Source: Rhizomicrobium sp. | Lineage (GTDB): Bacteria; Pseudomonadota; Alphaproteobacteria; Micropepsales; Micropepsaceae | DNA: 64,000 bases | Direction of reading: 5' to 3' | Assembly: GCA_036512455.1 (NCBI GenBank) | Contig: DATCAT010000014.1 | Span: forward strand, 157,205-221,204 | Shown: positions 23,462 to 40,800 of the stretch, in pieces | Layout: the number at the start of each line of letters is the position of its first letter | How positions within the stretch are numbered: the stretch's first letter is position 1 | Program-made: the position numbers and the translations under genes | The notes under the pieces: generated by a model | The model's input: the letters and a program-made list of their open reading frames with translations, nothing else | What the model was told of the DNA's origin: nothing | The model's database searches: none

Positions 23462-24064
23462 CTAGCGGCCGGCGGACACCGGCACGGCGTCGGCGTTCGC
23501 CCGCGCCAGCAGGTCCCGCAGCCAGTCATTGACGACGGCGTCGATCACCAGATGCACGCGATCCGTCGTGCCCTTGTTGGCGACGCGATGCGGATCGGTC
23601 AGGCGCAGATACCAGGCGCTGCCGGGTTCCATGACGACGCGCCTGCGGTTCAACTCGAACTCCACGCCGGGATTGGTCGCGACCGGAATGTGGATGCGCA
23701 CGGTTCCGTCCTCGGCGCTGAGATCGGGATCGCTGTGTTCCTTTATGATCGAGCCGGGGGTGAGGCGCATCAGCCGAACGCTGCGCAGCTCGCAGGAAAA
23801 GCGCGCCAGGAGGTCGCGGATATTCGGGCAGAGGCCGAGCAGCGGGGTATCTTCGAAAGCCGTCGCGGCCGGATCGGAATAGATCATCATGACCGGATGG
23901 CGCGCCCCGGCCGGCGCGCGCAGCGGCAGCACGCTCCAATCGCCTTCGTAGTTCTGCTTGACGAAATGCTCTATCCAGTCCTGCGACGACAGGCGCTCCA
24001 AATCGCGCGACAGCGCCGCGGGCTCGAAGGCGAGCGGCAGACGCAGACGGTCGGGAAAAGTCAT
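23462..24064 (-). CDS. Aspartyl/asparaginyl beta-hydroxylase family (2OG-Fe(II))
   Basis: VRLMRLTPGSIIKEHSD, RIHIPVATN, HRVANKG, RVHLVID. Confidence 0.88.
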   Translation of the reverse strand: MTFPDRLRLPLAFEPAALSRDLERLSSQDWIEHFVKQNYEGDWSVLPLRAPAGARHPVMMIYSDPAATAFEDTPLLGLCPNIRDLLARFSCELRSVRLMRLTPGSIIKEHSDPDLSAEDGTVRIHIPVATNPGVEFELNRRRVVMEPGSAWYLRLTDPHRVANKGTTDRVHLVIDAVVNDWLRDLLARANADAVPVSAGR

Positions 24065-29808: not shown

Positions 29809-31719
29809 TCAGCGATTGCCCCGCCGGAACCATTCGATGTAGCGGGCCTGGATGAAATACACGACGGCCTGACGCGTGTCGTATTCGGAGCCGGAATTGT
29901 GGTCGTCGGCCCGCCGCCGCGTCAGCATCTTGCGCATGCGCGGAAAATCGAAGCGGTGCGAGAGTTTGCCGTCGCCTTCCATGCGATCGATCTCGGCCAG
30001 AATTTGCGGCTCGATGCTCTTGGCCATGGCCAGAAAATCGGGCTTGAGATCGTCATTGCCCCGGCCGCGCGTTTGATATTCGGGCGGATACAGGTCTTTG
30101 AGCGCCTGGCGCGCGAGGTAACGTTCGCGGCCGCCCTTGACCCAGAGATCCTCCGGAATAGCGAGCGCCAGTTCGATCACCCGCTTGTCGTGAAAGGGCT
30201 GGGTGAATTCGAGGCCGCAGGCGGCCGGAATGCGCGAGCCGGCAAGGGCGCGGCCGTTCTGGTGGCTTTCCAGCGCCCTTGTCATGCGCGCGCGTCTTTG
30301 CGCGCCGCTGACGGGCTTTGACGCGCGGGCCTCGATGCCGGCGGAGGCCTGCACCTTCACCAGCGGCCAGGTCGAACCGAACAGCGCCAGGCCGTGGCGG
30401 TGACGCATTCTCACGCGATTGATTTGCTGCGGCAGCAGGTTCGCCACCACTTCGGCCCAGGCAATTCGCCAGACGCCCGCGCCGCTGTGGCGCCGATAAG
30501 CGCGGAACTCGGAAACGAATTCGCGCAGGCGGCCCTGGCGCAGCAGACTGTAGAGCCACGGATGGTTTCTCGGATTGAGCGTGTAGTCGCCGCCATGACC
30601 GTCCATGATGACCTTGGCGCCCGCGGCCGCCGCCGTCGCATGGATGTCGTCGGTGATATAGCCGCCCGCGCTCGTGGGACCCTCGCCGCCGAAGAACGAT
30701 TTCTCCATCGCCGTGAAAATGCTGCGTCCGGCGCCTGTGACATAGCGAACGTCGAGATGCGGCATGAACCTGGAGCAGATCTCGGCCCAGCGCCGGGCGT
30801 GGCGGATCGTGCCGCGATAGTCTTGCGGCATCGCCGAGCAGATGCAGATGAGTTTGCGGTTCTGCGCCGCAACAATGGGGCCGGCGAGGGCGGCGATGGC
30901 GGTGGAATCGAAACCGCCGCCGAAGAACAGCGCTCCGGGCTGGGTGGTGCGCCGCAAGCGGCAGGCCACCGCTTCGCCCAGCACGCGGCGATAGGCGGCG
31001 ACATAATAGGCTTCGTCCTGGCCTTGGTGACGCGGATCCGCCCTCGGTTGCCAATAGCGCCGCACGCTTGTGGCGCCGTCGGCGGCGACCGTCATCACGG
31101 TGCCGCCGGAAATCGCCGATATGCCGTCGAACGGTGTCACTGCAATTTCCACATTGCGGTTGAGCAGTTTAGCCGAGCCGAGCATGTCGTCCAGCAGCAC
31201 ACGCGGAACGTCGCCGAGCGCCCACAATCCCTTGATCTCCGTCGCGAAAGCGAAAAAGCCTTCGGCGCGATGAAAGGCGATGCGACGCTGGCCCATGTGA
31301 TCGCGTGCCAGGACAAGTTTTCCGGCGCGCGCGTCCCAGATGGCGAACGCGAAATCGCCAAGCAGGCGATCGACGCAGTCCTCGCCCCATCGCGCGTAGG
31401 CGCGCAGCAGGAGCGCACTGTCGGCCATGTCGCGCAGCGTCTCGGTGTCGATGCCGAGCGCCTTCGCAAGCTCCTCGCGGTTGTCGAGCCGAAGATCGGC
31501 GACCAGCGTCAGGGCGCCGGCCTCGTCGCGCAGCGGCTGGGCATCGAAGCGATCCTCCTGTGTGACGCGCATGAGCAGGTGGGCGAGGCCGACGGGGCCG
31601 TCATGCCAGGCGCGGCGGCGATCGGGGCCGAGATGACCCATCGCGTTCATCTGCCGTTCGAGATCGCGCGCGGCGACGGCCGCGCCATCGAAGCGCAGGA
31701 TTCCGCAGATGCCGCTCAC
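29809..31719 (-). CDS. Asparagine-synthase-like lasso cyclase (C protein)
   Basis: Starts MSGICG (Ser replaces the catalytic Cys), ARDHMGQR, PP-loop variant GGGFDS, MDGHGGD, QPFHDKRVIE. Lies downstream of the precursor on the same strand. Confidence 0.85.
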   Translation of the reverse strand: MSGICGILRFDGAAVAARDLERQMNAMGHLGPDRRRAWHDGPVGLAHLLMRVTQEDRFDAQPLRDEAGALTLVADLRLDNREELAKALGIDTETLRDMADSALLLRAYARWGEDCVDRLLGDFAFAIWDARAGKLVLARDHMGQRRIAFHRAEGFFAFATEIKGLWALGDVPRVLLDDMLGSAKLLNRNVEIAVTPFDGISAISGGTVMTVAADGATSVRRYWQPRADPRHQGQDEAYYVAAYRRVLGEAVACRLRRTTQPGALFFGGGFDSTAIAALAGPIVAAQNRKLICICSAMPQDYRGTIRHARRWAEICSRFMPHLDVRYVTGAGRSIFTAMEKSFFGGEGPTSAGGYITDDIHATAAAAGAKVIMDGHGGDYTLNPRNHPWLYSLLRQGRLREFVSEFRAYRRHSGAGVWRIAWAEVVANLLPQQINRVRMRHRHGLALFGSTWPLVKVQASAGIEARASKPVSGAQRRARMTRALESHQNGRALAGSRIPAACGLEFTQPFHDKRVIELALAIPEDLWVKGGRERYLARQALKDLYPPEYQTRGRGNDDLKPDFLAMAKSIEPQILAEIDRMEGDGKLSHRFDFPRMRKMLTRRRADDHNSGSEYDTRQAVVYFIQARYIEWFRRGNR

Positions 31720-31885: not shown

Positions 31886-32050
31886 CTAGCTTCCTGACTG
31901 GGCGGTATTGGGAGATGAGTTATGGTTTTCTGTAATGTCGGGGATGTCCTTGTTCGTCCCACTGGCTTCCGCCGTCACGATCACTTTCGGCGTTGACCAC
32001 GGCTTGCGCGCTGCAGCGCAACCCGATTCGGTGGACACTTTCTCAGACAT
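31886..32050 (-). CDS. Putative lasso/RiPP precursor, 54 aa: MSEKVSTESGCAAARKPWSTPKVIVTAEASGTN-KDIPDITENHNSSPNTAQSGS
   Basis: WxxPxV leader motif, Thr at -2, Glu at core position 8, C-terminal Ser. Located 166 bp upstream of the cyclase. Confidence 0.8.
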   Translation of the reverse strand: MSEKVSTESGCAAARKPWSTPKVIVTAEASGTNKDIPDITENHNSSPNTAQSGS

Positions 32051-32259
32051 GGCCGTCTTCCCCGCAGCACGACAACGCACATAAGTTGACACAAAGTAAT
32101 GGCGCAAATCAATCGCCTTCGGCGAACGCCGTCTTTATTGCGTGGAAATGGTTCAAAAACTATTGCCTGAGGCAGAGTTCCTTGGTAAATAAGATTAAGA
32201 CTAGCCACCTCGCTGCGGTGGTGGGCTCCTGACGCGGCGACTAATCCATGGGGTGATTG

Positions 32260-32778
32260 ATGACCAGTCCGTATCTCGGCGAAATCAAGCTTATGCCCTG
32301 GAGCTTCGCACCGCGAGGTTGGGCGTTTTGTGCTGGGCAAATACTGTCAATTCAGCAGAACACAGCGTTGTTCTCCCTGCTCGGTACAATCTACGGCGGT
32401 AACGGTCAGACGACGTTCGGTTTGCCGGATCTGCGCGGCCGCGTGCCGATCCATCGCGACCAGCAGGGTCAATATCCGCAAGGCGACATGGAAGGCGAGG
32501 AGCAGGAAACGCTCTCGCTGAGCGAGATGCCGGCGCACAATCATTCCTTCGTGGGTACGTCGGCGGCCGGCGGCGCGGGCTCGCCGACCGGTCTGACAAT
32601 TCTGGCCGCCCCGAATCTGCCGGCGAATGCTTACTACGGCCCCGACACGACGCCGACACCGATCGCGCCGACGAGCGTCAGTCCCGTCGGCGGCAATCAG
32701 CCTCACCAAAATATGCAGCCCTTCCTCACGATGAATTATTGCATCGCGCTGAACGGCATATTCCCGGCGCGCAACTAG
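32260..32778 (+). CDS. Phage tail-collar domain protein 1
   Basis: YLGEIKL..FAPRGWAFCAGQ, LFSLLGTIYGGNGQTTFGLPDLRGR; C-terminal HQNMQPFLTMNYCIALNGIFP. Confidence 0.92.
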   Translation: MTSPYLGEIKLMPWSFAPRGWAFCAGQILSIQQNTALFSLLGTIYGGNGQTTFGLPDLRGRVPIHRDQQGQYPQGDMEGEEQETLSLSEMPAHNHSFVGTSAAGGAGSPTGLTILAAPNLPANAYYGPDTTPTPIAPTSVSPVGGNQPHQNMQPFLTMNYCIALNGIFPARN

Positions 32779-32821
32779 ACGACGGCGGGACGCACAAACC
32801 AATTTACGGAGGACGGGCGGT

Positions 32822-33361
32822 ATGGTTACACCTTTTATCGGAGAGCTTCGGCCGTTTGCGGGCAACTTCGCGCCGAGAAACTGGGCGATGGCGAATGGGC
32901 AGCTTTTGAGCATCGCGCAGAACGCGGCGCTGTTCTCGCTGCTCGGCACCACCTATGGCGGCAACGGGGTCAACACGTTCGCCTTGCCAAATCTGCAAGG
33001 CACGCTGGCGATCAATCAAGGCCAGGGACCGGGGCTGACGTCGCGCACGTTGGGCGAGATCGGCGGAACCGAGAACGTGACGCTGCTGCAGGCGAACTTG
33101 CCAATCCACAACCATACGATGAACGCGACAACCCAGCCCGCGGTGGCGAATGCGCCGCCGGGAAACACTGTTCTGGGCGGCACGATCACGGCACCCGGCT
33201 CGCTCTATATCACGCCGGGTAGTCCGACGCCCGTTCCGGAAGTATTTCCGGCCAATGCCTGCGGCATCGCGGGCAGTAGCTTGCCGCATCCCAACATGAT
33301 GCCGGCGCTGGTGATCACCTACATCATCGCCTTGTCGGGCATTTTCCCCAGCCGCAATTGA
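32822..33361 (+). CDS. Phage tail-collar domain protein 2
   Basis: FIGELRPFAGNFAPRNW, YGGNGVNTFALPNLQG; C-terminal HPNMMP..YIIALSGIFPSRN. Confidence 0.92.
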   Translation: MVTPFIGELRPFAGNFAPRNWAMANGQLLSIAQNAALFSLLGTTYGGNGVNTFALPNLQGTLAINQGQGPGLTSRTLGEIGGTENVTLLQANLPIHNHTMNATTQPAVANAPPGNTVLGGTITAPGSLYITPGSPTPVPEVFPANACGIAGSSLPHPNMMPALVITYIIALSGIFPSRN

Positions 33362-33380
33362 AACACGAGGAAGACCGAAC

Positions 33381-33926
33381 ATGAGCAATATGTACATCGG
33401 AGAAATCCGGCCGTTTGGCTTCACCTTCGCACCCCAGAACTGGGCGTTTTGCGATGGCCAGCTGATGTCCATCGCCCAGAACTCGACGCTGTACGCGGTG
33501 ATCGGCACGACCTATGGCGGCGACGGACAGACCACCTTCGGGCTTCCCGATCTGCGCGGCCGCGCGACGATGCACCAGGGCACGGGTCCGGGGCTGACCC
33601 AGCGCGTGATCGGCCAATCCTTTGGAACGCCGAATGTGACGCTGATAGCCTCGCAAATGCCGGCCCATGTGCACACTTTGAACGCCGCCCAGCCCGCGCT
33701 GCACGGCGAAGGCTTGTTCACGGGCACGCCGGGTCCGACCGTGCTTTATTCCAACAGCGCGCCCGGCAAGGCTTGGCATGGCGAGGCGAGTCCGCCGCCC
33801 TATGTCAATTTCTCGAACAAAGCGATCTCGATCAATGGCGGGTCGCTGCCGCACGACAATCTGCAGCCGCTCCTGTCGGTCAATTTCTGCATTGCGCTCT
33901 TCGGGATTTTCCCGTCGCAGAACTAG
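33381..33926 (+). CDS. Phage tail-collar domain protein 3
   Basis: YIGEIRPFGFTFAPQNWAFCDGQ, YGGDGQTTFGLPDLRGR; C-terminal HDNLQP..NFCIALFGIFPSQN. Confidence 0.92.
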   Translation: MSNMYIGEIRPFGFTFAPQNWAFCDGQLMSIAQNSTLYAVIGTTYGGDGQTTFGLPDLRGRATMHQGTGPGLTQRVIGQSFGTPNVTLIASQMPAHVHTLNAAQPALHGEGLFTGTPGPTVLYSNSAPGKAWHGEASPPPYVNFSNKAISINGGSLPHDNLQPLLSVNFCIALFGIFPSQN

Positions 33927-33963
33927 CCGTTCGGGGAGGCGCTGACGAAACGGGGCGGCGGCC

Positions 33964-34482
33964 ATGTTCGCGTTGCCGTCCTCGCTTGTCTCTGAAGGCT
34001 TCTCGCTGCGGCCGGAGACTGAAGCGGATATTCCGTTCCTCGCCGGGCTCTTCGCCTCGACGCGCGCCGAGGAGATGGAGCGCATCGTTGAATGGACCGC
34101 CGAACAGAAGCAGGCGTTTCTGTTCGATCAGTTCCGGCTGCAGCGCCACCACTACTACACCCATTTCCCGAACTGCGAGTTCCTCGTCCTGGAACGCGGC
34201 GGCGTGGCCGGCGGGCGAATTTATCTCGACAGCACGCCCAATTCGCTCGATCTCATCGACATCTCGCTCCTTCCCCCATGGCGCGGCCGGGGCACGGGCA
34301 CGACGCTGCTGGACGCCGTCATCGCCGCCGCCCGCGCCGGCGGCCGGCGTGTCACGATTTTCGTCGAAAAGTTCAATCCGGCGCTGAACCTCTACCGCCG
34401 CTTGGGATTCCGCGAGATCGCCGATACCGGGCTCTATCTCGAAATGGAATGGCGCGCGGACGCCGCCGGGAACGTCAGTTGA
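33964..34482 (+). CDS. GNAT acetyltransferase
   Basis: DISLLPPWRGRGTGTTLL, NPALNLYRRLGF. Confidence 0.9.
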   Translation: MFALPSSLVSEGFSLRPETEADIPFLAGLFASTRAEEMERIVEWTAEQKQAFLFDQFRLQRHHYYTHFPNCEFLVLERGGVAGGRIYLDSTPNSLDLIDISLLPPWRGRGTGTTLLDAVIAAARAGGRRVTIFVEKFNPALNLYRRLGFREIADTGLYLEMEWRADAAGNVS

Positions 34483-34777
34483 ACGTGCAATCGTAGAATA
34501 CGCCGCGTTCGTCCTTGCCCGTCGGGACCAGGAACAGCGTCAGGCTGCCCAATGCCGCGTTCTGCAGGCGCCACAGACGCTGCTCGAGGATGCGCGGATC
34601 CTGGGCCAGGAACGTCAACGAAAAGGGCGGCCGGAGCGCCGGCCGCTGACCGCGGACCGCCAGCGCGTCGGCCGCCTTCAGGGTCAGCGAGATCGGCGGG
34701 ACATCGGTTTCGTCGACCATGAAGATCTGTCCGATCAGGCCGGTGAAGTCCTCCAGAACAAATTGCCGTTCCGTCAT
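34475..34777 (-). CDS. DUF6916-like protein
   Basis: 100 aa; RPPFSLTF, LEQRLWRL, LFLVP, YDCTFN. This family typically accompanies tail-collar triplets. Confidence 0.75.
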   Translation of the reverse strand: MTERQFVLEDFTGLIGQIFMVDETDVPPISLTLKAADALAVRGQRPALRPPFSLTFLAQDPRILEQRLWRLQNAALGSLTLFLVPTGKDERGVFYDCTFN

Positions 34778-36409: not shown

Positions 36410-37741
36410 TTACGGCCGGTAGGTCAGCTGCAAGCCGGCGACGTTGACATAGGACTGGGTCGTGCCGGTCAGCGTGCCGCGCAGCGCCGCGCCCGGGATG
36501 GCCGGATTGAGCGCGACGTCCGTCTTCAGGTTGAACAGCCGCGAGGCCGTGACGTTCAGGTCCATGCTGCTGCTCAGGCGGCAGCGTACGCCCGCCGACA
36601 GCCAGATGCGGTCGGCGTCGGGAATGCGCGGCTCGCGCGTCGCGTCGGGCACGGGGCTTTGGTCGTAGGCGGCGCCGGCGCGAAACGCGAGGGATTGGCT
36701 GGCGCGATATTCCAGGCCGACTGAACCGAACAGCGTGTTGCGCCAGTGCGTCGTCGTCACGTCGTTGGGCTGCAACGGATTTGCCGCGATGACGGTGAGC
36801 TGGCGAAAGCGGCTCCAATGGGTCCAGTCCAGTTCCACCATGCCCGACCAGTTGCTGGAGAACTCGTTGCGCGCGCCGAACTCGACCATATCCGGCATGG
36901 TCAGCGGCGTCGTCTGGCGCGTGTCGGTGAACAGGCCCGTCACGGCGCGGATGGTGGCGCCGACGCCGGTGGCGTCCAGCGTGAAGGTCAGCGGCCCCTT
37001 CAGGTCGTGCTGCAGCGACGAGCGATAGGAGAGGCCCAAGGTCAGGCTGTCGCTGGGCCTGGCCATCACGCCGGCGGTGTAGCCGAACGTCCAGCTCTTG
37101 CCGCCGAGACGCGCGAAGCTGTCCTGCCCGCCGGGCACGGAGCCGGGGATGCCGTTCAGCGCCCCCAACGTGCCGGTGTCGATGGCGCTGGTCAGCGTGC
37201 CTTGCGCGTACTCGACCTGCAGGCCGGCACCGAAGGTGAGGCTTGGGCTCAGCTGATAGGAAATCGTCGGCGTGGCGTTGATCGTCAGGAGTTCGGTCTT
37301 CTGCGCGTCGTACCGTCCGGCCCAGGTCGCGGGATAGTCGGTTCGCAGGCCCCAGGGCGCGGAGATCTCCAGCCCGACGGCGATGCGGTCGGACAACCGA
37401 TGGCGAAAACCGAAGGCCGGAACCAGCGCGTCGCTGATGAAGCCGCTCGGCGTCAAACTTCCGCCGGTCGGATTGCCGGCCGAGGTCGTCGCCGATGCAT
37501 AGGTGCCCTTCGAGCCGGGCAGGATCGCGACCATGCTGATCGAAAAGTCCGTGTCCATGACGCCGGCCAGCGAGGCGGGATTGTAGGCCAGATAGCTCGC
37601 GTCGCTGCTGGTCGCGGCGGCGCCGGCATAGGCCGCGGCCATCGCGTCGGCACTGTGCTCCTTGAGGCCGTAACCGGCGCCGAGAGCGGGCGATGCCCCC
37701 AGGGCGAACAGGCCCAGGAAAACGAACGCGGTCCGGCGCAT
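36410..37741 (-). CDS. fadL: OmpP1/FadL/TodX outer-membrane hydrophobic-molecule channel
   Basis: Signal peptide, GYGLKEHSA hatch region, AYNPASL, YDQSPV..RIPDADRIWLSAG. Confidence 0.85.
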   Translation of the reverse strand: MRRTAFVFLGLFALGASPALGAGYGLKEHSADAMAAAYAGAAATSSDASYLAYNPASLAGVMDTDFSISMVAILPGSKGTYASATTSAGNPTGGSLTPSGFISDALVPAFGFRHRLSDRIAVGLEISAPWGLRTDYPATWAGRYDAQKTELLTINATPTISYQLSPSLTFGAGLQVEYAQGTLTSAIDTGTLGALNGIPGSVPGGQDSFARLGGKSWTFGYTAGVMARPSDSLTLGLSYRSSLQHDLKGPLTFTLDATGVGATIRAVTGLFTDTRQTTPLTMPDMVEFGARNEFSSNWSGMVELDWTHWSRFRQLTVIAANPLQPNDVTTTHWRNTLFGSVGLEYRASQSLAFRAGAAYDQSPVPDATREPRIPDADRIWLSAGVRCRLSSSMDLNVTASRLFNLKTDVALNPAIPGAALRGTLTGTTQSYVNVAGLQLTYRP

Positions 37742-37818
37742 GGTGAAATTCCTTTTCGGTATCGCAGAGCAGATCATATCGCTTGATCGTCCAACTCATT
37801 GAAATTGCGTGAAACTGC

Positions 37819-37834
37819 GTAAATTCCCGTTAAC
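37819..37834 (+). promoter_or_regulatory. CtrA-like box GTAA-N7-TTAAC (one mismatch)
   Basis: Lies 78 bp upstream of the kinase ATG; consensus is TTAA-N7-TTAAC. Confidence 0.45.
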
Positions 37835-37912
37835 CTTCGCCGCTATGCAATTATTTACTCGGGTAAGGCGATGATGCGGCGGGGAAATTGTTAGGGTTCT
37901 CTGGCCATCCAG

Positions 37913-39346
<1,434 letters not shown>

Positions 39347-39354
39347 GGCCCGCA

Positions 39355-40800
39355 TCAGTTCTTGCGCACGAACAGCATTCTGACGCGGCCCGTCCGTTCG
39401 GTTTCGGTCCACGCCCTGGCGGCGTTCAGGCCCTCGGCCCATCCGATCATGTCCGCGTCGTTGCGATATTGCAGCGTCCAGTCGGCGATGTATTCCATCG
39501 GCCAATAGTTGCTGAGCGGGCATTCGTTCATGTTGCCGATGATGAGCAAGCCGCCCGGCATCAACAGGTCGAACAGCCGCTTCACCAGCGCCTTGGCGCG
39601 ATGATCGGTGAGGTAGTCGAGCAGGCCGACCGAATAGACCAGATCTTGCGGTGGCAGGCCGGCGAGGCCCTCTGTGCCGCGCAGGATGTCGGTGAAGGAC
39701 AGGTTCAGCCCCTGCACCTTGATGCGGCCGTCCGAGTTCAGGACATAGGGATAGGTCGTCTCATGCGCGTAGAGCAGGGCGACTTCTTCCTGGTCGATCA
39801 GCGAGAACTCGACGCGGTGGCCCGACGTGCTGTGGCTGCTGAGATAGGCCTGCACCTCGCGCGCCGGGCCGCTGCCCAGGCTGGCGATGCGCGCCGGACG
39901 GTCATGACCGCGCTCGCGCACGACGTCGCCGATATGGGTGCGGACCACTTCCATGCGCGTGCGAATGCATTCGGCCACTTCCAGGCCGACCCGATGCATC
40001 AGCATCTCGTAGGCGTCGCCGCCCAGCCGCTCCCAGTCATAGACCTGGTTCATGATCTCGAAGTCGCCGGGATAGCCCAGCGGCTTGGCGTAGGAGCGGT
40101 CCCAGATCGCGCCCTTGCGCAGTTCGGGCGTCAGGACGAGCTCGGTATACTCCTTGGCGGCTTCGCGCACGTCGCGGTCGCCGGTGAACGCCAGGGTCAG
40201 ATCGTTGCCGGTCCGCCACAGCGAGCGCCATTGCTGGATCAGGCGCGGCTCGCAGGTCTCGAACGCCTCGACCTGGTCGAGGCCGTGGTGGAATTCGTTC
40301 GCGACCGCCGAATTGGACTCCAGCACCACGCGGTAGGAGCGTAGCAGCTTGAGGACATCGGCGCAGAAGGCGCGATATTCGATCGGCACTAGCTGGGCGA
40401 ATTCCTGCGTGAAGGCCGGCGAGCGCGCCGCGATCTGTGCCTGGGTGTTGCGCGTCAAGAGCTTGTCGAACTCGACGAAGCGGTCGACGAAGTTGAAAGC
40501 GATCTTGGATCCGAACACCGTGCTTTCGGCCCGGCAGACGCGCGCCGAACTTTCGAAGATCGGCAATCCCGATTGCTGGATGCTAAGCGGCACCGTCTCG
40601 CCGACTTCCGGAAGATCGTCATGCGACGTCTTCGACAGCGCCGACAAGCCGCCCAGACTGATGTCATGCAAACGGTACGCTGTGGCACGCACGCGAACGC
40701 GCGGCGCCAGACTCGGAAACATTCTGCGGGCGTCGTAGCGCGGCGGGCGAAAACGGATTTGACGGCCGGTCGAGCCTTTTAACTCTTCATACGCAAGCAT
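39355..40800 (-). CDS. Class I SAM methyltransferase with N-terminal PilZ-like domain (PhcB-like)
   Basis: DISLGG (DxSxxG); KPLGYPGDFEIMN; SLGSGPARE; DLVYSVGLLDYL; GGLLIIGN. Start taken at MLAYEELKG. Confidence 0.75.
   Translation of the reverse strand: MLAYEELKGSTGRQIRFRPPRYDARRMFPSLAPRVRVRATAYRLHDISLGGLSALSKTSHDDLPEVGETVPLSIQQSGLPIFESSARVCRAESTVFGSKIAFNFVDRFVEFDKLLTRNTQAQIAARSPAFTQEFAQLVPIEYRAFCADVLKLLRSYRVVLESNSAVANEFHHGLDQVEAFETCEPRLIQQWRSLWRTGNDLTLAFTGDRDVREAAKEYTELVLTPELRKGAIWDRSYAKPLGYPGDFEIMNQVYDWERLGGDAYEMLMHRVGLEVAECIRTRMEVVRTHIGDVVRERGHDRPARIASLGSGPAREVQAYLSSHSTSGHRVEFSLIDQEEVALLYAHETTYPYVLNSDGRIKVQGLNLSFTDILRGTEGLAGLPPQDLVYSVGLLDYLTDHRAKALVKRLFDLLMPGGLLIIGNMNECPLSNYWPMEYIADWTLQYRNDADMIGWAEGLNAARAWTETERTGRVRMLFVRKN

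Follow-up and report, generated by a model that had tools for sequence, protein, structure and literature searches.

Three collar paralogs with GNAT and DUF6916 partners beside a lasso-peptide cluster in Rhizomicrobium sp.: a putative cellular cassette related to phage fibre tips

The phage fibre tip is among the best-studied recognition modules, and here we examine a locus in which it is kept as a fixed three-gene set in ordinary chromosomes, with counterparts in several phyla. The locus comprises three tandem paralogs with a collar domain (PF07484), a GNAT acetyltransferase gene and a DUF6916 gene, and lies in a 64,000-nucleotide (nt) stretch of Rhizomicrobium sp. DNA, referred to below as the window (assembly GCA_036512455.1, contig DATCAT010000014.1, positions 157,205–221,204 of the forward strand). 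The contig of the window is labelled C14; C24, C25, C32 and C52 are further contigs of the same genome. The reference architecture is that of T4 gp12 (1OCY, 5IV5) and of the cyanophage A-1(L) tail fibre (8KEC), which share with the window proteins the collar, an inserted head containing HxH and a C-terminal strand leading back to the collar. The gp12 protein differs in being a homotrimer of a 527-amino acid (aa) chain with a long, baseplate-bound shaft, whereas in the window the tip stands alone and is encoded as three distinct chains, with identity of ∼24%.

The closest functional precedent for the trio is the heterotrimer of the DSLV2 virophage (Aquatic Virophage 1 lineage), in which three consecutive PF07484 proteins co-purify 1:1:1 by way of one tagged subunit (PMC12724248). 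That complex is ∼58 kDa, runs at ∼55 kDa on native gels, forms 16-nm fibres and binds Synechococcus cells (PMC12724248). As in the window, the three DSLV2 genes are consecutive, co-oriented and of similar size, and their ∼19-kDa products are composed of a collar and a variable head. In DSLV2, however, the proteins belong to the virion and their genes adjoin those of the capsid, whereas the window trio is chromosomal and is accompanied by GNAT, DUF6916 and a lasso-peptide cluster, with no virion genes. Our searches also brought up virus-like contigs that carry three collar genes in a row; the chains of the window trio are ∼175 aa long, compared with 227–236 aa in the viral contigs sampled.

Within PF07484/COG4675, cellular members have been named in two cases only, RhiB of Rhizobium leguminosarum and MrpB/MdpB of Microcystis (PMC13133039, PMC6969944; Cubo 1992). 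These COG4675 proteins are small, as are the window collars, and have no phage context. The rhiABC(D) system differs in that the domain is present in RhiB alone and that no trio, GNAT or DUF6916 is described; RhiB is likened to the window proteins by description. Both rhiB and mrpB were described thirty years ago. The neighbouring genes in the window have their own precedent in kinase-tailored lasso clusters, namely that of paeninodin and one from Sphingobium yanoikuyae, as covered in a review (PMC8498205). These likewise include a cyclase, an RRE of the PqqD type and an HPr-kinase-like gene, and the difference is that collar proteins go unmentioned in that review and in the cluster descriptions read here (PMC8498205).

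The collar–GNAT–DUF6916 cassette and its collar proteins

A preliminary description of this DNA, made from the sequence alone, had listed three collar paralogs of 172–181 aa, a GNAT and a DUF6916 gene facing it at positions 32260–34777. Both the gene set and its layout hold up in the present analysis: the DUF6916 gene is convergent with the GNAT gene, and the ends of the two overlap by 8 bp. The description had missed that the arrangement is conserved in multiple phyla and is no one-off domestication. In a survey anchored on DUF6916, 401 Pseudomonadota genomes were sampled and the family was found in 42 of them (28 of 212 genera); 40 loci were cut out and scanned with our own profiles. Collar genes occur within a few kb in 37 of the 40 loci, of which 23 have three copies, 4 have two and 10 have a single one, and the same GNAT family is present in 35 of these 37. 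The contexts of three distant collar homologues each contain three collars, a GNAT and DUF6916, and in a tblastn search of plasmids and chromids most matching records have three match places each. Annotated examples are found on pART37 of Paenibacillus sp. 37 (an Ig-like protein of 1592 aa, a GNAT and three ‘tail fiber proteins’), on pDFI2 of Deinococcus ficus and on the megaplasmid of Ruegeria sp. TM1040 (a choice-of-anchor D protein of 1895 aa, three collars, a GNAT and a convergent open reading frame (ORF) of 97 aa).

The DUF6916 family comprises 9385 cluster representatives and also has homologues in Myxococcota, Acidobacteriota and Magnetococcales, and for collar paralog 3 there are at least 8000 homologues of 168–186 aa, many of them named ‘microcystin-dependent protein’ (JGI) or ‘tail fiber protein’. 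Judged by sequence comparison, the five genes represent, in the window, a conserved cassette of cellular rather than phage type that is distributed across several phyla; three collar classes, a dedicated GNAT and DUF6916 are all present here within ∼3 kb. A full-text literature search for DUF6916 returned no paper, and the collar–GNAT–DUF6916 cassette is absent from the literature searched.

Two Rosetta-stone fusions tie the parts of the cassette together. One is a single 559-aa ORF with the order collar–collar–GNAT (L031:2100–3779, minus strand), next to which lie a free collar gene and a lasso cluster, and the other is a GNAT–DUF6916 protein of 263 aa (P0384) from the representative library. 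Among the best 150 of the 9385 DUF6916 matches, the only fusions are that to GNAT, tandem duplication and N-terminal extensions, the last being either twin-arginine (Tat) signals or unexplained. In its own genome, the DUF6916 gene is single-copy.

The cassette has characteristic neighbours in other genomes. A giant ORF of 1000–2900 aa directly adjoins it in 23 of the 40 loci, in divergent or co-directional orientation, and three of the four giants examined have Pfam matches, either to Ig-like/cadherin repeats (two with an N-terminal DUF4347) or to He_PIG repeats with an autotransporter domain. The preliminary description noted that no large adhesin is encoded nearby, and indeed C14 has no ORF longer than 1300 aa. 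In six loci (L023, L024, L028, L029, L037 and L041; for example L029:11759–15993) the cassette, which there lies beside giant adhesins, is flanked by a trio of HlyD, HlyD and a fused M50 protease–HlyD gene. The M50 protease part resembles intramembrane metalloproteases of the daptide/YydH type, with scores under the family cut-offs, and hints at a link to peptide export in non-lasso loci too. A search of the Rhizomicrobium genome found no homologue of this trio, on which ground a type I secretion partner was rejected here. The window thus differs from the cassette elsewhere, where a giant protein and, in a few genomes, a Tat signal on DUF6916 are found: it has neither, and the partner is a lasso precursor surrounded by a cyclase, an RRE and a kinase.

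Each of the three collar paralogs matches the Pfam Collar model at 89–100 bits (cut-off 24) from residue 7 or 8 onward; NCBIfam provided no model for the collars and none for DUF6916. The paralogs are 44–45% identical in pairwise comparisons. All three are built from an N-terminal collar, an HxH motif, a variable head and a PHxN motif, and they end in GIFPx(R/Q)N, which reads GIFPARN, GIFPSRN and GIFPSQN in gene order. The shared collar and C-terminal motif, the variable middles and the lack of signal peptides were all features of the preliminary description, and each is borne out by the domain matches and alignments: column entropy over 64 homologues is 2.4–2.7 bits at residues 101–150 as against 0.4–1.5 bits elsewhere, and the N-termini, which are devoid of signal-peptide features in all three proteins, form part of the conserved domain. 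The HxH and PHxN motifs had not been listed, and HxH is kept in 98 of 99 collar proteins.

A profile built from the three paralogs matches the A-1(L) tail fibre (8KEC, 1.4e-7) and T4 gp12 (1e-3) in the PDB. The 8KEC alignment takes in the HxH stretch, where the motif is paired with SHQH of 8KEC. An AlphaFold monomer model of paralog 3, built from 72 sequences, is confident for the collar and the C-terminal strand, with a predicted local distance difference test score (pLDDT) above 90, and drops to ∼50 in the head, as expected for one chain of an intertwined trimer. With Foldseek, this model aligns over its full length with the receptor-binding domain of T4 gp12 (1OCY; E 8.5e-6, probability 1.0, 191 aligned columns). 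The low TM-score of 0.35 reflects the poorly modelled head of the monomer. Matches in PHROGs are tail proteins throughout, and the collars align to internal segments of these far longer chains; the full-length phage homologues, 36–38% identical, are minor tail proteins of Microbacterium and Arthrobacter phages. The collar proteins are therefore the tip of a fibre, collar plus head, without the shaft, since the domain begins at residue 7 or 8 and the PHROG tail families align at internal segments only. An N-terminal shaft for anchoring to a baseplate is not present in them. The ‘domesticated spike’ of the preliminary description is supported as to a phage-tip origin by the 1OCY superposition and the profile matches, and is incorrect as to ‘spike’, the part being a shaftless fibre tip.

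The number of collar genes follows a rule. In loci of the triple type there are exactly three collar domains in 26 of 26 cases, never two or four. Loci with one or two copies group apart in a clade of their own, where local duplications are recent. Position 158 is H in 77 of 78 triple-type proteins and position 160 is N in all 78, whereas single-copy proteins have F, V or I at position 158 and no fixed residue at position 160. In a tree of 99 collar proteins, the position-3 label requires 5 changes as compared with 23.7 in shuffles, and a single clade (SH-aLRT 96) unites 19 of the 27 proteins from position 3, which was matched by 0 of 500 shuffles. Larger arrays exist in IMG/VR contigs, with nine collar genes (L132:1–5456) and six (L134:5693–8900). 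Identities within the nine-gene array are 64–67% among genes 1, 4 and 7, 57–63% among 2, 5 and 8, and 53–61% among 3, 6 and 9, with all other pairs at 33–48%; the pattern, which the six-gene array shares, has a period of three, and therefore the A-B-C trio duplicates as a unit. The collar–collar–GNAT fusion together with its one free collar gene again yields three collar domains. Taken together, this comparative evidence points to one mixed A-B-C trimer and, with the DSLV2 precedent, lends indirect support to the 1:1:1 heterotrimer that the preliminary description had suggested.

The two partners are less readily placed. The GNAT has RimI-like and FR47-like sequence matches under the cut-offs and nondescript matches in the PDB, and solved structures were uninformative as to substrates for the GNAT and the sulfotransferase. 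DUF6916 is modelled as a small six-stranded β-barrel (pLDDT 90.5), for which Foldseek found no structural relative below E 0.01 in the PDB and BFVD; with that search empty, a recognisable tail-fibre chaperone or other known fold was rejected. A toxin–antitoxin pairing of GNAT and DUF6916 was rejected on the basis of the β-barrel fold and the variable gene order. In systems of the TacAT type, a small ribbon–helix–helix (RHH)/DUF1778 antitoxin gene lies directly upstream of the acetyltransferase gene and is co-transcribed with it, whereas here the DUF6916 β-barrel is encoded convergently and its position varies elsewhere. None of the PADLOC defence models matched the six proteins searched at E up to 0.01, and a known anti-phage defence system was rejected on that account.

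Linkage to a lasso-peptide cluster

In the window, a lasso-peptide cluster takes the place of an adhesin, a feature that the preliminary description had missed, and the precursor gene shares a divergent intergenic region with the collar operon. The cluster includes the cyclase, a PqqD-type RRE, an HPr-kinase-like gene, sulfotransferases and oxygenases. The same association is found in 7 of the 40 DUF6916-anchored loci, which belong to several families and classes and have varied gene orders. A reverse survey anchored on the cyclase covered 80 loci, 16 of which have the same accessory set and sufficient flanking DNA. In 12 of these 16, three collars, a GNAT and DUF6916 directly adjoin the cyclase. 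Cassette-bearing lasso loci include those of a Rhizomicrobium metagenome-assembled genome (MAG), Sphingomonas oligophenolica JCM 12082, S. mali NBRC 15500, Sphingomonas sp. NFX23, Erythrobacter colymbi JCM 18338 and a Xanthobacteraceae MAG. In one further locus (L073) the cassette is beside a cyclase and the remaining lasso genes were not detected. The lasso-linked cassette seems to be a new variant of the cellular collar cassette.

The junction between precursor and collars recurs in related loci. In 16 collar-bearing loci with a precursor-like match, the precursor homologue separates the cyclase gene from the first collar gene and is divergent from the collars, several of these matches being weak (tblastn E 0.005 to 2). 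The junction is kept both where the cyclase is co-directional with the precursor (the window, L001 and L083) and where it is convergent (Sphingomonas, Erythrobacter); the constant element is therefore the head-to-head precursor–collar junction, in a position that giant adhesin genes often hold elsewhere. In L001, the closest relative, the cassette is located between the cyclase and precursor genes on one side and the RRE and kinase genes on the other, whereas the cassettes of L040 and L011 run in the same direction as the lasso genes. An 11-mer block, TTCCTTGGTAA, is common to the intergenic regions of the window and L001, a weak observation from two sequences only. In Erythrobacter colymbi JCM 18338, three tandem precursor-like genes occupy the space between the cyclase and the first collar gene (L075:12004–12569).

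Two enzymes in the neighbourhood appear to follow the collars. Of the lasso loci, 12 of 13 with collars have homologues of the Sulfotransfer_3 protein and of the Asp/Asn-hydroxylase-like protein, as against none of four without collars, and both genes are also found beside collars in six non-lasso loci (L003, L006, L022, L024, L028 and L029). From this distribution, the Sulfotransfer_3 protein is probably an accessory of the collar module rather than core lasso machinery, and it may be that neither gene encodes a lasso tailoring enzyme.

A proposed role and its alternatives

The most likely role, as far as comparative data can suggest one, would be that of a mixed trimer, stapled by a metal and with a ligand-binding variable tip, that is coupled to the neighbouring exported product. 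We propose that one operon, in which the GNAT gene is the last, yields the three collar paralogs, and that these assemble as a single A-B-C trimer of ∼57 kDa with the architecture of the T4 gp12 receptor-binding tip. The N-terminal collar domains and the C-terminal GIFPxxN strands would form the base, the HxH motifs of the three chains would hold an axial metal ion and the hypervariable residues ∼100–150 would make up a distal ligand-binding face. The GNAT and the DUF6916 β-barrel would act in physical contact with the trimer. GNAT enzymes require acetyl-CoA, and the GNAT step would thus be cytoplasmic. The module would be functionally coupled to the adjoining gene, which is a giant surface adhesin in most genomes and which here would be a lasso peptide of the kinase/sulfotransferase type, with its precursor transcribed divergently from the same intergenic region. 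For this account as a whole, a conserved cellular cassette in which a mixed trimer, GNAT and DUF6916 are coupled to a neighbouring product, we estimate a probability of roughly 0.55.

A more specific version can be framed, in which the collar trimer is the dedicated partner of the head-to-head lasso peptide and binds, carries, presents or aims it, or holds it for acetylation by the GNAT. We consider this quite unlikely as it stands. If it were true, the locus would be a two-part system in which a natural product made as a ribosomal peptide is joined to a receptor-binding device of phage origin, and the same device would serve giant adhesins in most other genomes. Cultured Sphingomonas and Erythrobacter carriers are of practical value in this regard, since their lasso peptide, a small product friendly to mass spectrometry, could serve as a readout of cassette action. 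Should the trimer bind a peptide or glycan specifically, it would provide a compact and naturally diversified binding scaffold.

Several observations weigh against the proposed role. The deep nodes of the paralog tree are weak, class order is permuted in some loci and the three classes keep identical conserved residues with no asymmetry between them; single-copy relatives evidently act without partners, and homotrimers are therefore possible for the fold. The metal site and the tip of the trimer are drawn from homology only, the monomer model being poor in the head (pLDDT ∼50). Signal peptides are absent from the collars, as is a Tat signal from the local DUF6916, and any extracellular role would be conjectural. 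As for the coupling, 4 of the 16 related lasso clusters have no collars. One of these, in a Caulobacteraceae MAG, keeps the GNAT and DUF6916 genes only, beside the cyclase and with no collar gene within 9 kb (L052:9033–14300), and the lasso cluster of Rhizomicrobium electricum DSM 21034 has no collar genes within 10 kb on either side. The neighbours to which the cassette is linked, giant adhesins on the one hand and a 20-residue peptide on the other, moreover differ greatly and share no demonstrated logic.

On the question of location, a twin-arginine signal is carried by DUF6916 in a few genomes (L015, L020, L021, P0254 and P0295), and this leaves room for a ‘hitch-hiking’ export of the folded complex through the Tat route. 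There is little outside evidence on where collar proteins reside: exoproteomes included one from Ruegeria pomeroyi (PMC4949626), and COG4675 proteins were found in soil metaproteomes (PMC5579227).

The alternatives to a mixed trimer concern either the way in which the chains pair or the machine that they serve. Three separate homotrimers of differing specificity, which would amount to a small lectin-like repertoire, would agree with the single-copy members of 10 sampled loci, which must act alone, with the presence of the same conserved residues in all three paralogs and with simulations of the DSLV2 proteins in which one homotrimer was likewise fairly stable (PMC12724248). An open-ended repertoire should vary in copy number, however, and the triple-type loci do not; arrays expand by whole A-B-C triplets, the paralog classes are old and position-specific and the fused and free collar genes of L031 add up to exactly three domains. 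These features make separate homotrimers unlikely in our judgement. It is also conceivable that the collars are detached fibres in the service of a contractile injection system, a tailocin or a prophage whose genes lie elsewhere in the genome. The genome does have an eCIS-like locus on C52 (C52:46800–66000), with sheath proteins of 1045 and 682 aa, a tube protein of 146 aa and a baseplate J protein; phage capsid genes are present on C24 and C25, and the closest viral homologues of the collars are minor tail proteins. The search for a tailocin or injection system that the preliminary description had called for was in this sense successful, and yet it tells only nominally against a cellular cassette, as Phage_sheath_1 has no match in 30 of the 41 genomes with the cassette, several complete ones among them. 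In addition, the collar domain opens the protein directly, leaving no shaft or baseplate-attachment part, and the steady partners of the collars are GNAT and DUF6916 rather than tail genes. We regard a service to such machinery as highly improbable. A prophage or tailocin remnant at the locus itself was rejected, given the lack of sheath in those 30 genomes and of hallmark genes on C14: the preliminary description reported no capsid, sheath, baseplate or integrase genes, and family searches extend this result to the whole contig, with no match to the sheath, baseplate J, HK97 capsid or integrase families.

A mixed trimer would still leave the meaning of the lasso linkage to be judged. Cassette and lasso cluster may be mere neighbours that share a variable island or regulation and not a function, in which case the cassette would act here as it does beside adhesins elsewhere. 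Such a reading would account for the cassettes without lasso genes, which are far commoner (31 of the 40 sampled loci and the named plasmids), for the four related lasso clusters without collars and for some 45 more distant kinase-type lasso loci, from cyanobacteria, archaea, Acidobacteriota and others, that have no cassette (the exception is a Bacillota MAG with fragmentary collar-like ORFs 6 kb away). It accounts less well for a linkage that lasts across Rhizomicrobium, Sphingomonas, Erythrobacter and Xanthobacteraceae despite changing gene order and cyclase orientation, for the constancy of the precursor–collar junction and for the cassettes that are inserted among the lasso genes (L001) or co-directional with them (L040 and L011), and on balance it seems doubtful, although a real possibility. 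The GNAT, perhaps with DUF6916, might alternatively be an acetyltransferase for lasso tailoring or self-immunity, comparable to AlbT of albusnodin, with the collars as passengers. Acetylated lasso peptides are known (PMC8498205), and the Caulobacteraceae cluster that retains GNAT and DUF6916 without collars speaks for this idea. The same GNAT family is found, however, beside collars in at least 30 loci without lasso genes, including those of Paenibacillus, Deinococcus and Ruegeria, and it is fused to collar domains in L031; we consider the tailoring or immunity function improbable, and prefer coupling of the cassette to whichever product is encoded next to it.

Feature coordinates and further observations

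Coordinates of the cassette and of the neighbouring genes discussed above are collected in Table 1. The collar operon is compact, with gaps of 43 nt between paralogs 1 and 2, 19 nt between paralogs 2 and 3 and 37 nt between paralog 3 and the GNAT gene. For paralog 1, the ATG behind a GGGGTG ribosome-binding site was taken as the start codon; a TTG located 3 bases upstream is a less likely start. A scan of the locus for promoters and terminators gave no usable result.

Table 1. Positions of cassette and neighbouring features in the window
Feature	Position	Strand	Basis and remarks
Collar paralog 1, 172 aa	32260..32778	+	Pfam PF07484, E 9.5e-28; groups with position-1 orthologs
Collar paralog 2, 179 aa	32822..33361	+	Pfam PF07484, E 2.1e-25; 44% identity to paralog 1
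Collar paralog 3, 181 aa, adjoins GNAT	33381..33926	+	Pfam PF07484, E 7.5e-29
GNAT acetyltransferase, 172 aa	33964..34482	+	Pfam Acetyltransf_1, _7, _10, _3 and FR47, E ∼1e-11
DUF6916 protein, 100 aa	34475..34777	-	Pfam PF21880, E 3e-20
Sulfotransfer_3-fold protein, 406 aa	35104..36324	-	Pfam PF13469
Divergent intergenic region between lasso precursor gene and collar operon	32051..32259	.	Sequence read; 209 bp
Lasso-peptide precursor gene	31886..32050	-	ORF; homologues with KPWxTPxVI-type leader motif in related loci
Asparagine-synthase-like lasso cyclase	29809..31719	-	NCBIfam NF033535, 333 bits, under the cut-off of 525; Pfam Asn_synthase, GATase
Asp/Asn-hydroxylase-like gene	23462–24064		

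The genome contains five collar matches in all, the three of the window and two on C32. The latter are collar-only proteins of 130 and 121 aa without a head, which have Sec-type signal peptides (C32:6388–7307), and they are followed by a TacA/TacT-like pair of DUF1778 and GNAT genes (C32:7351–8244). In the eCIS-like locus on C52, several proteins of 550–1000 aa are encoded downstream. Within the window, a FadL-type outer-membrane protein and a MASE8 histidine kinase come after the cluster (36410–40800) and are also present in L001. The named family member RhiB is regulated by quorum sensing, and a regulatory tie between the cassette and this FadL/MASE8 signalling module is conceivable.

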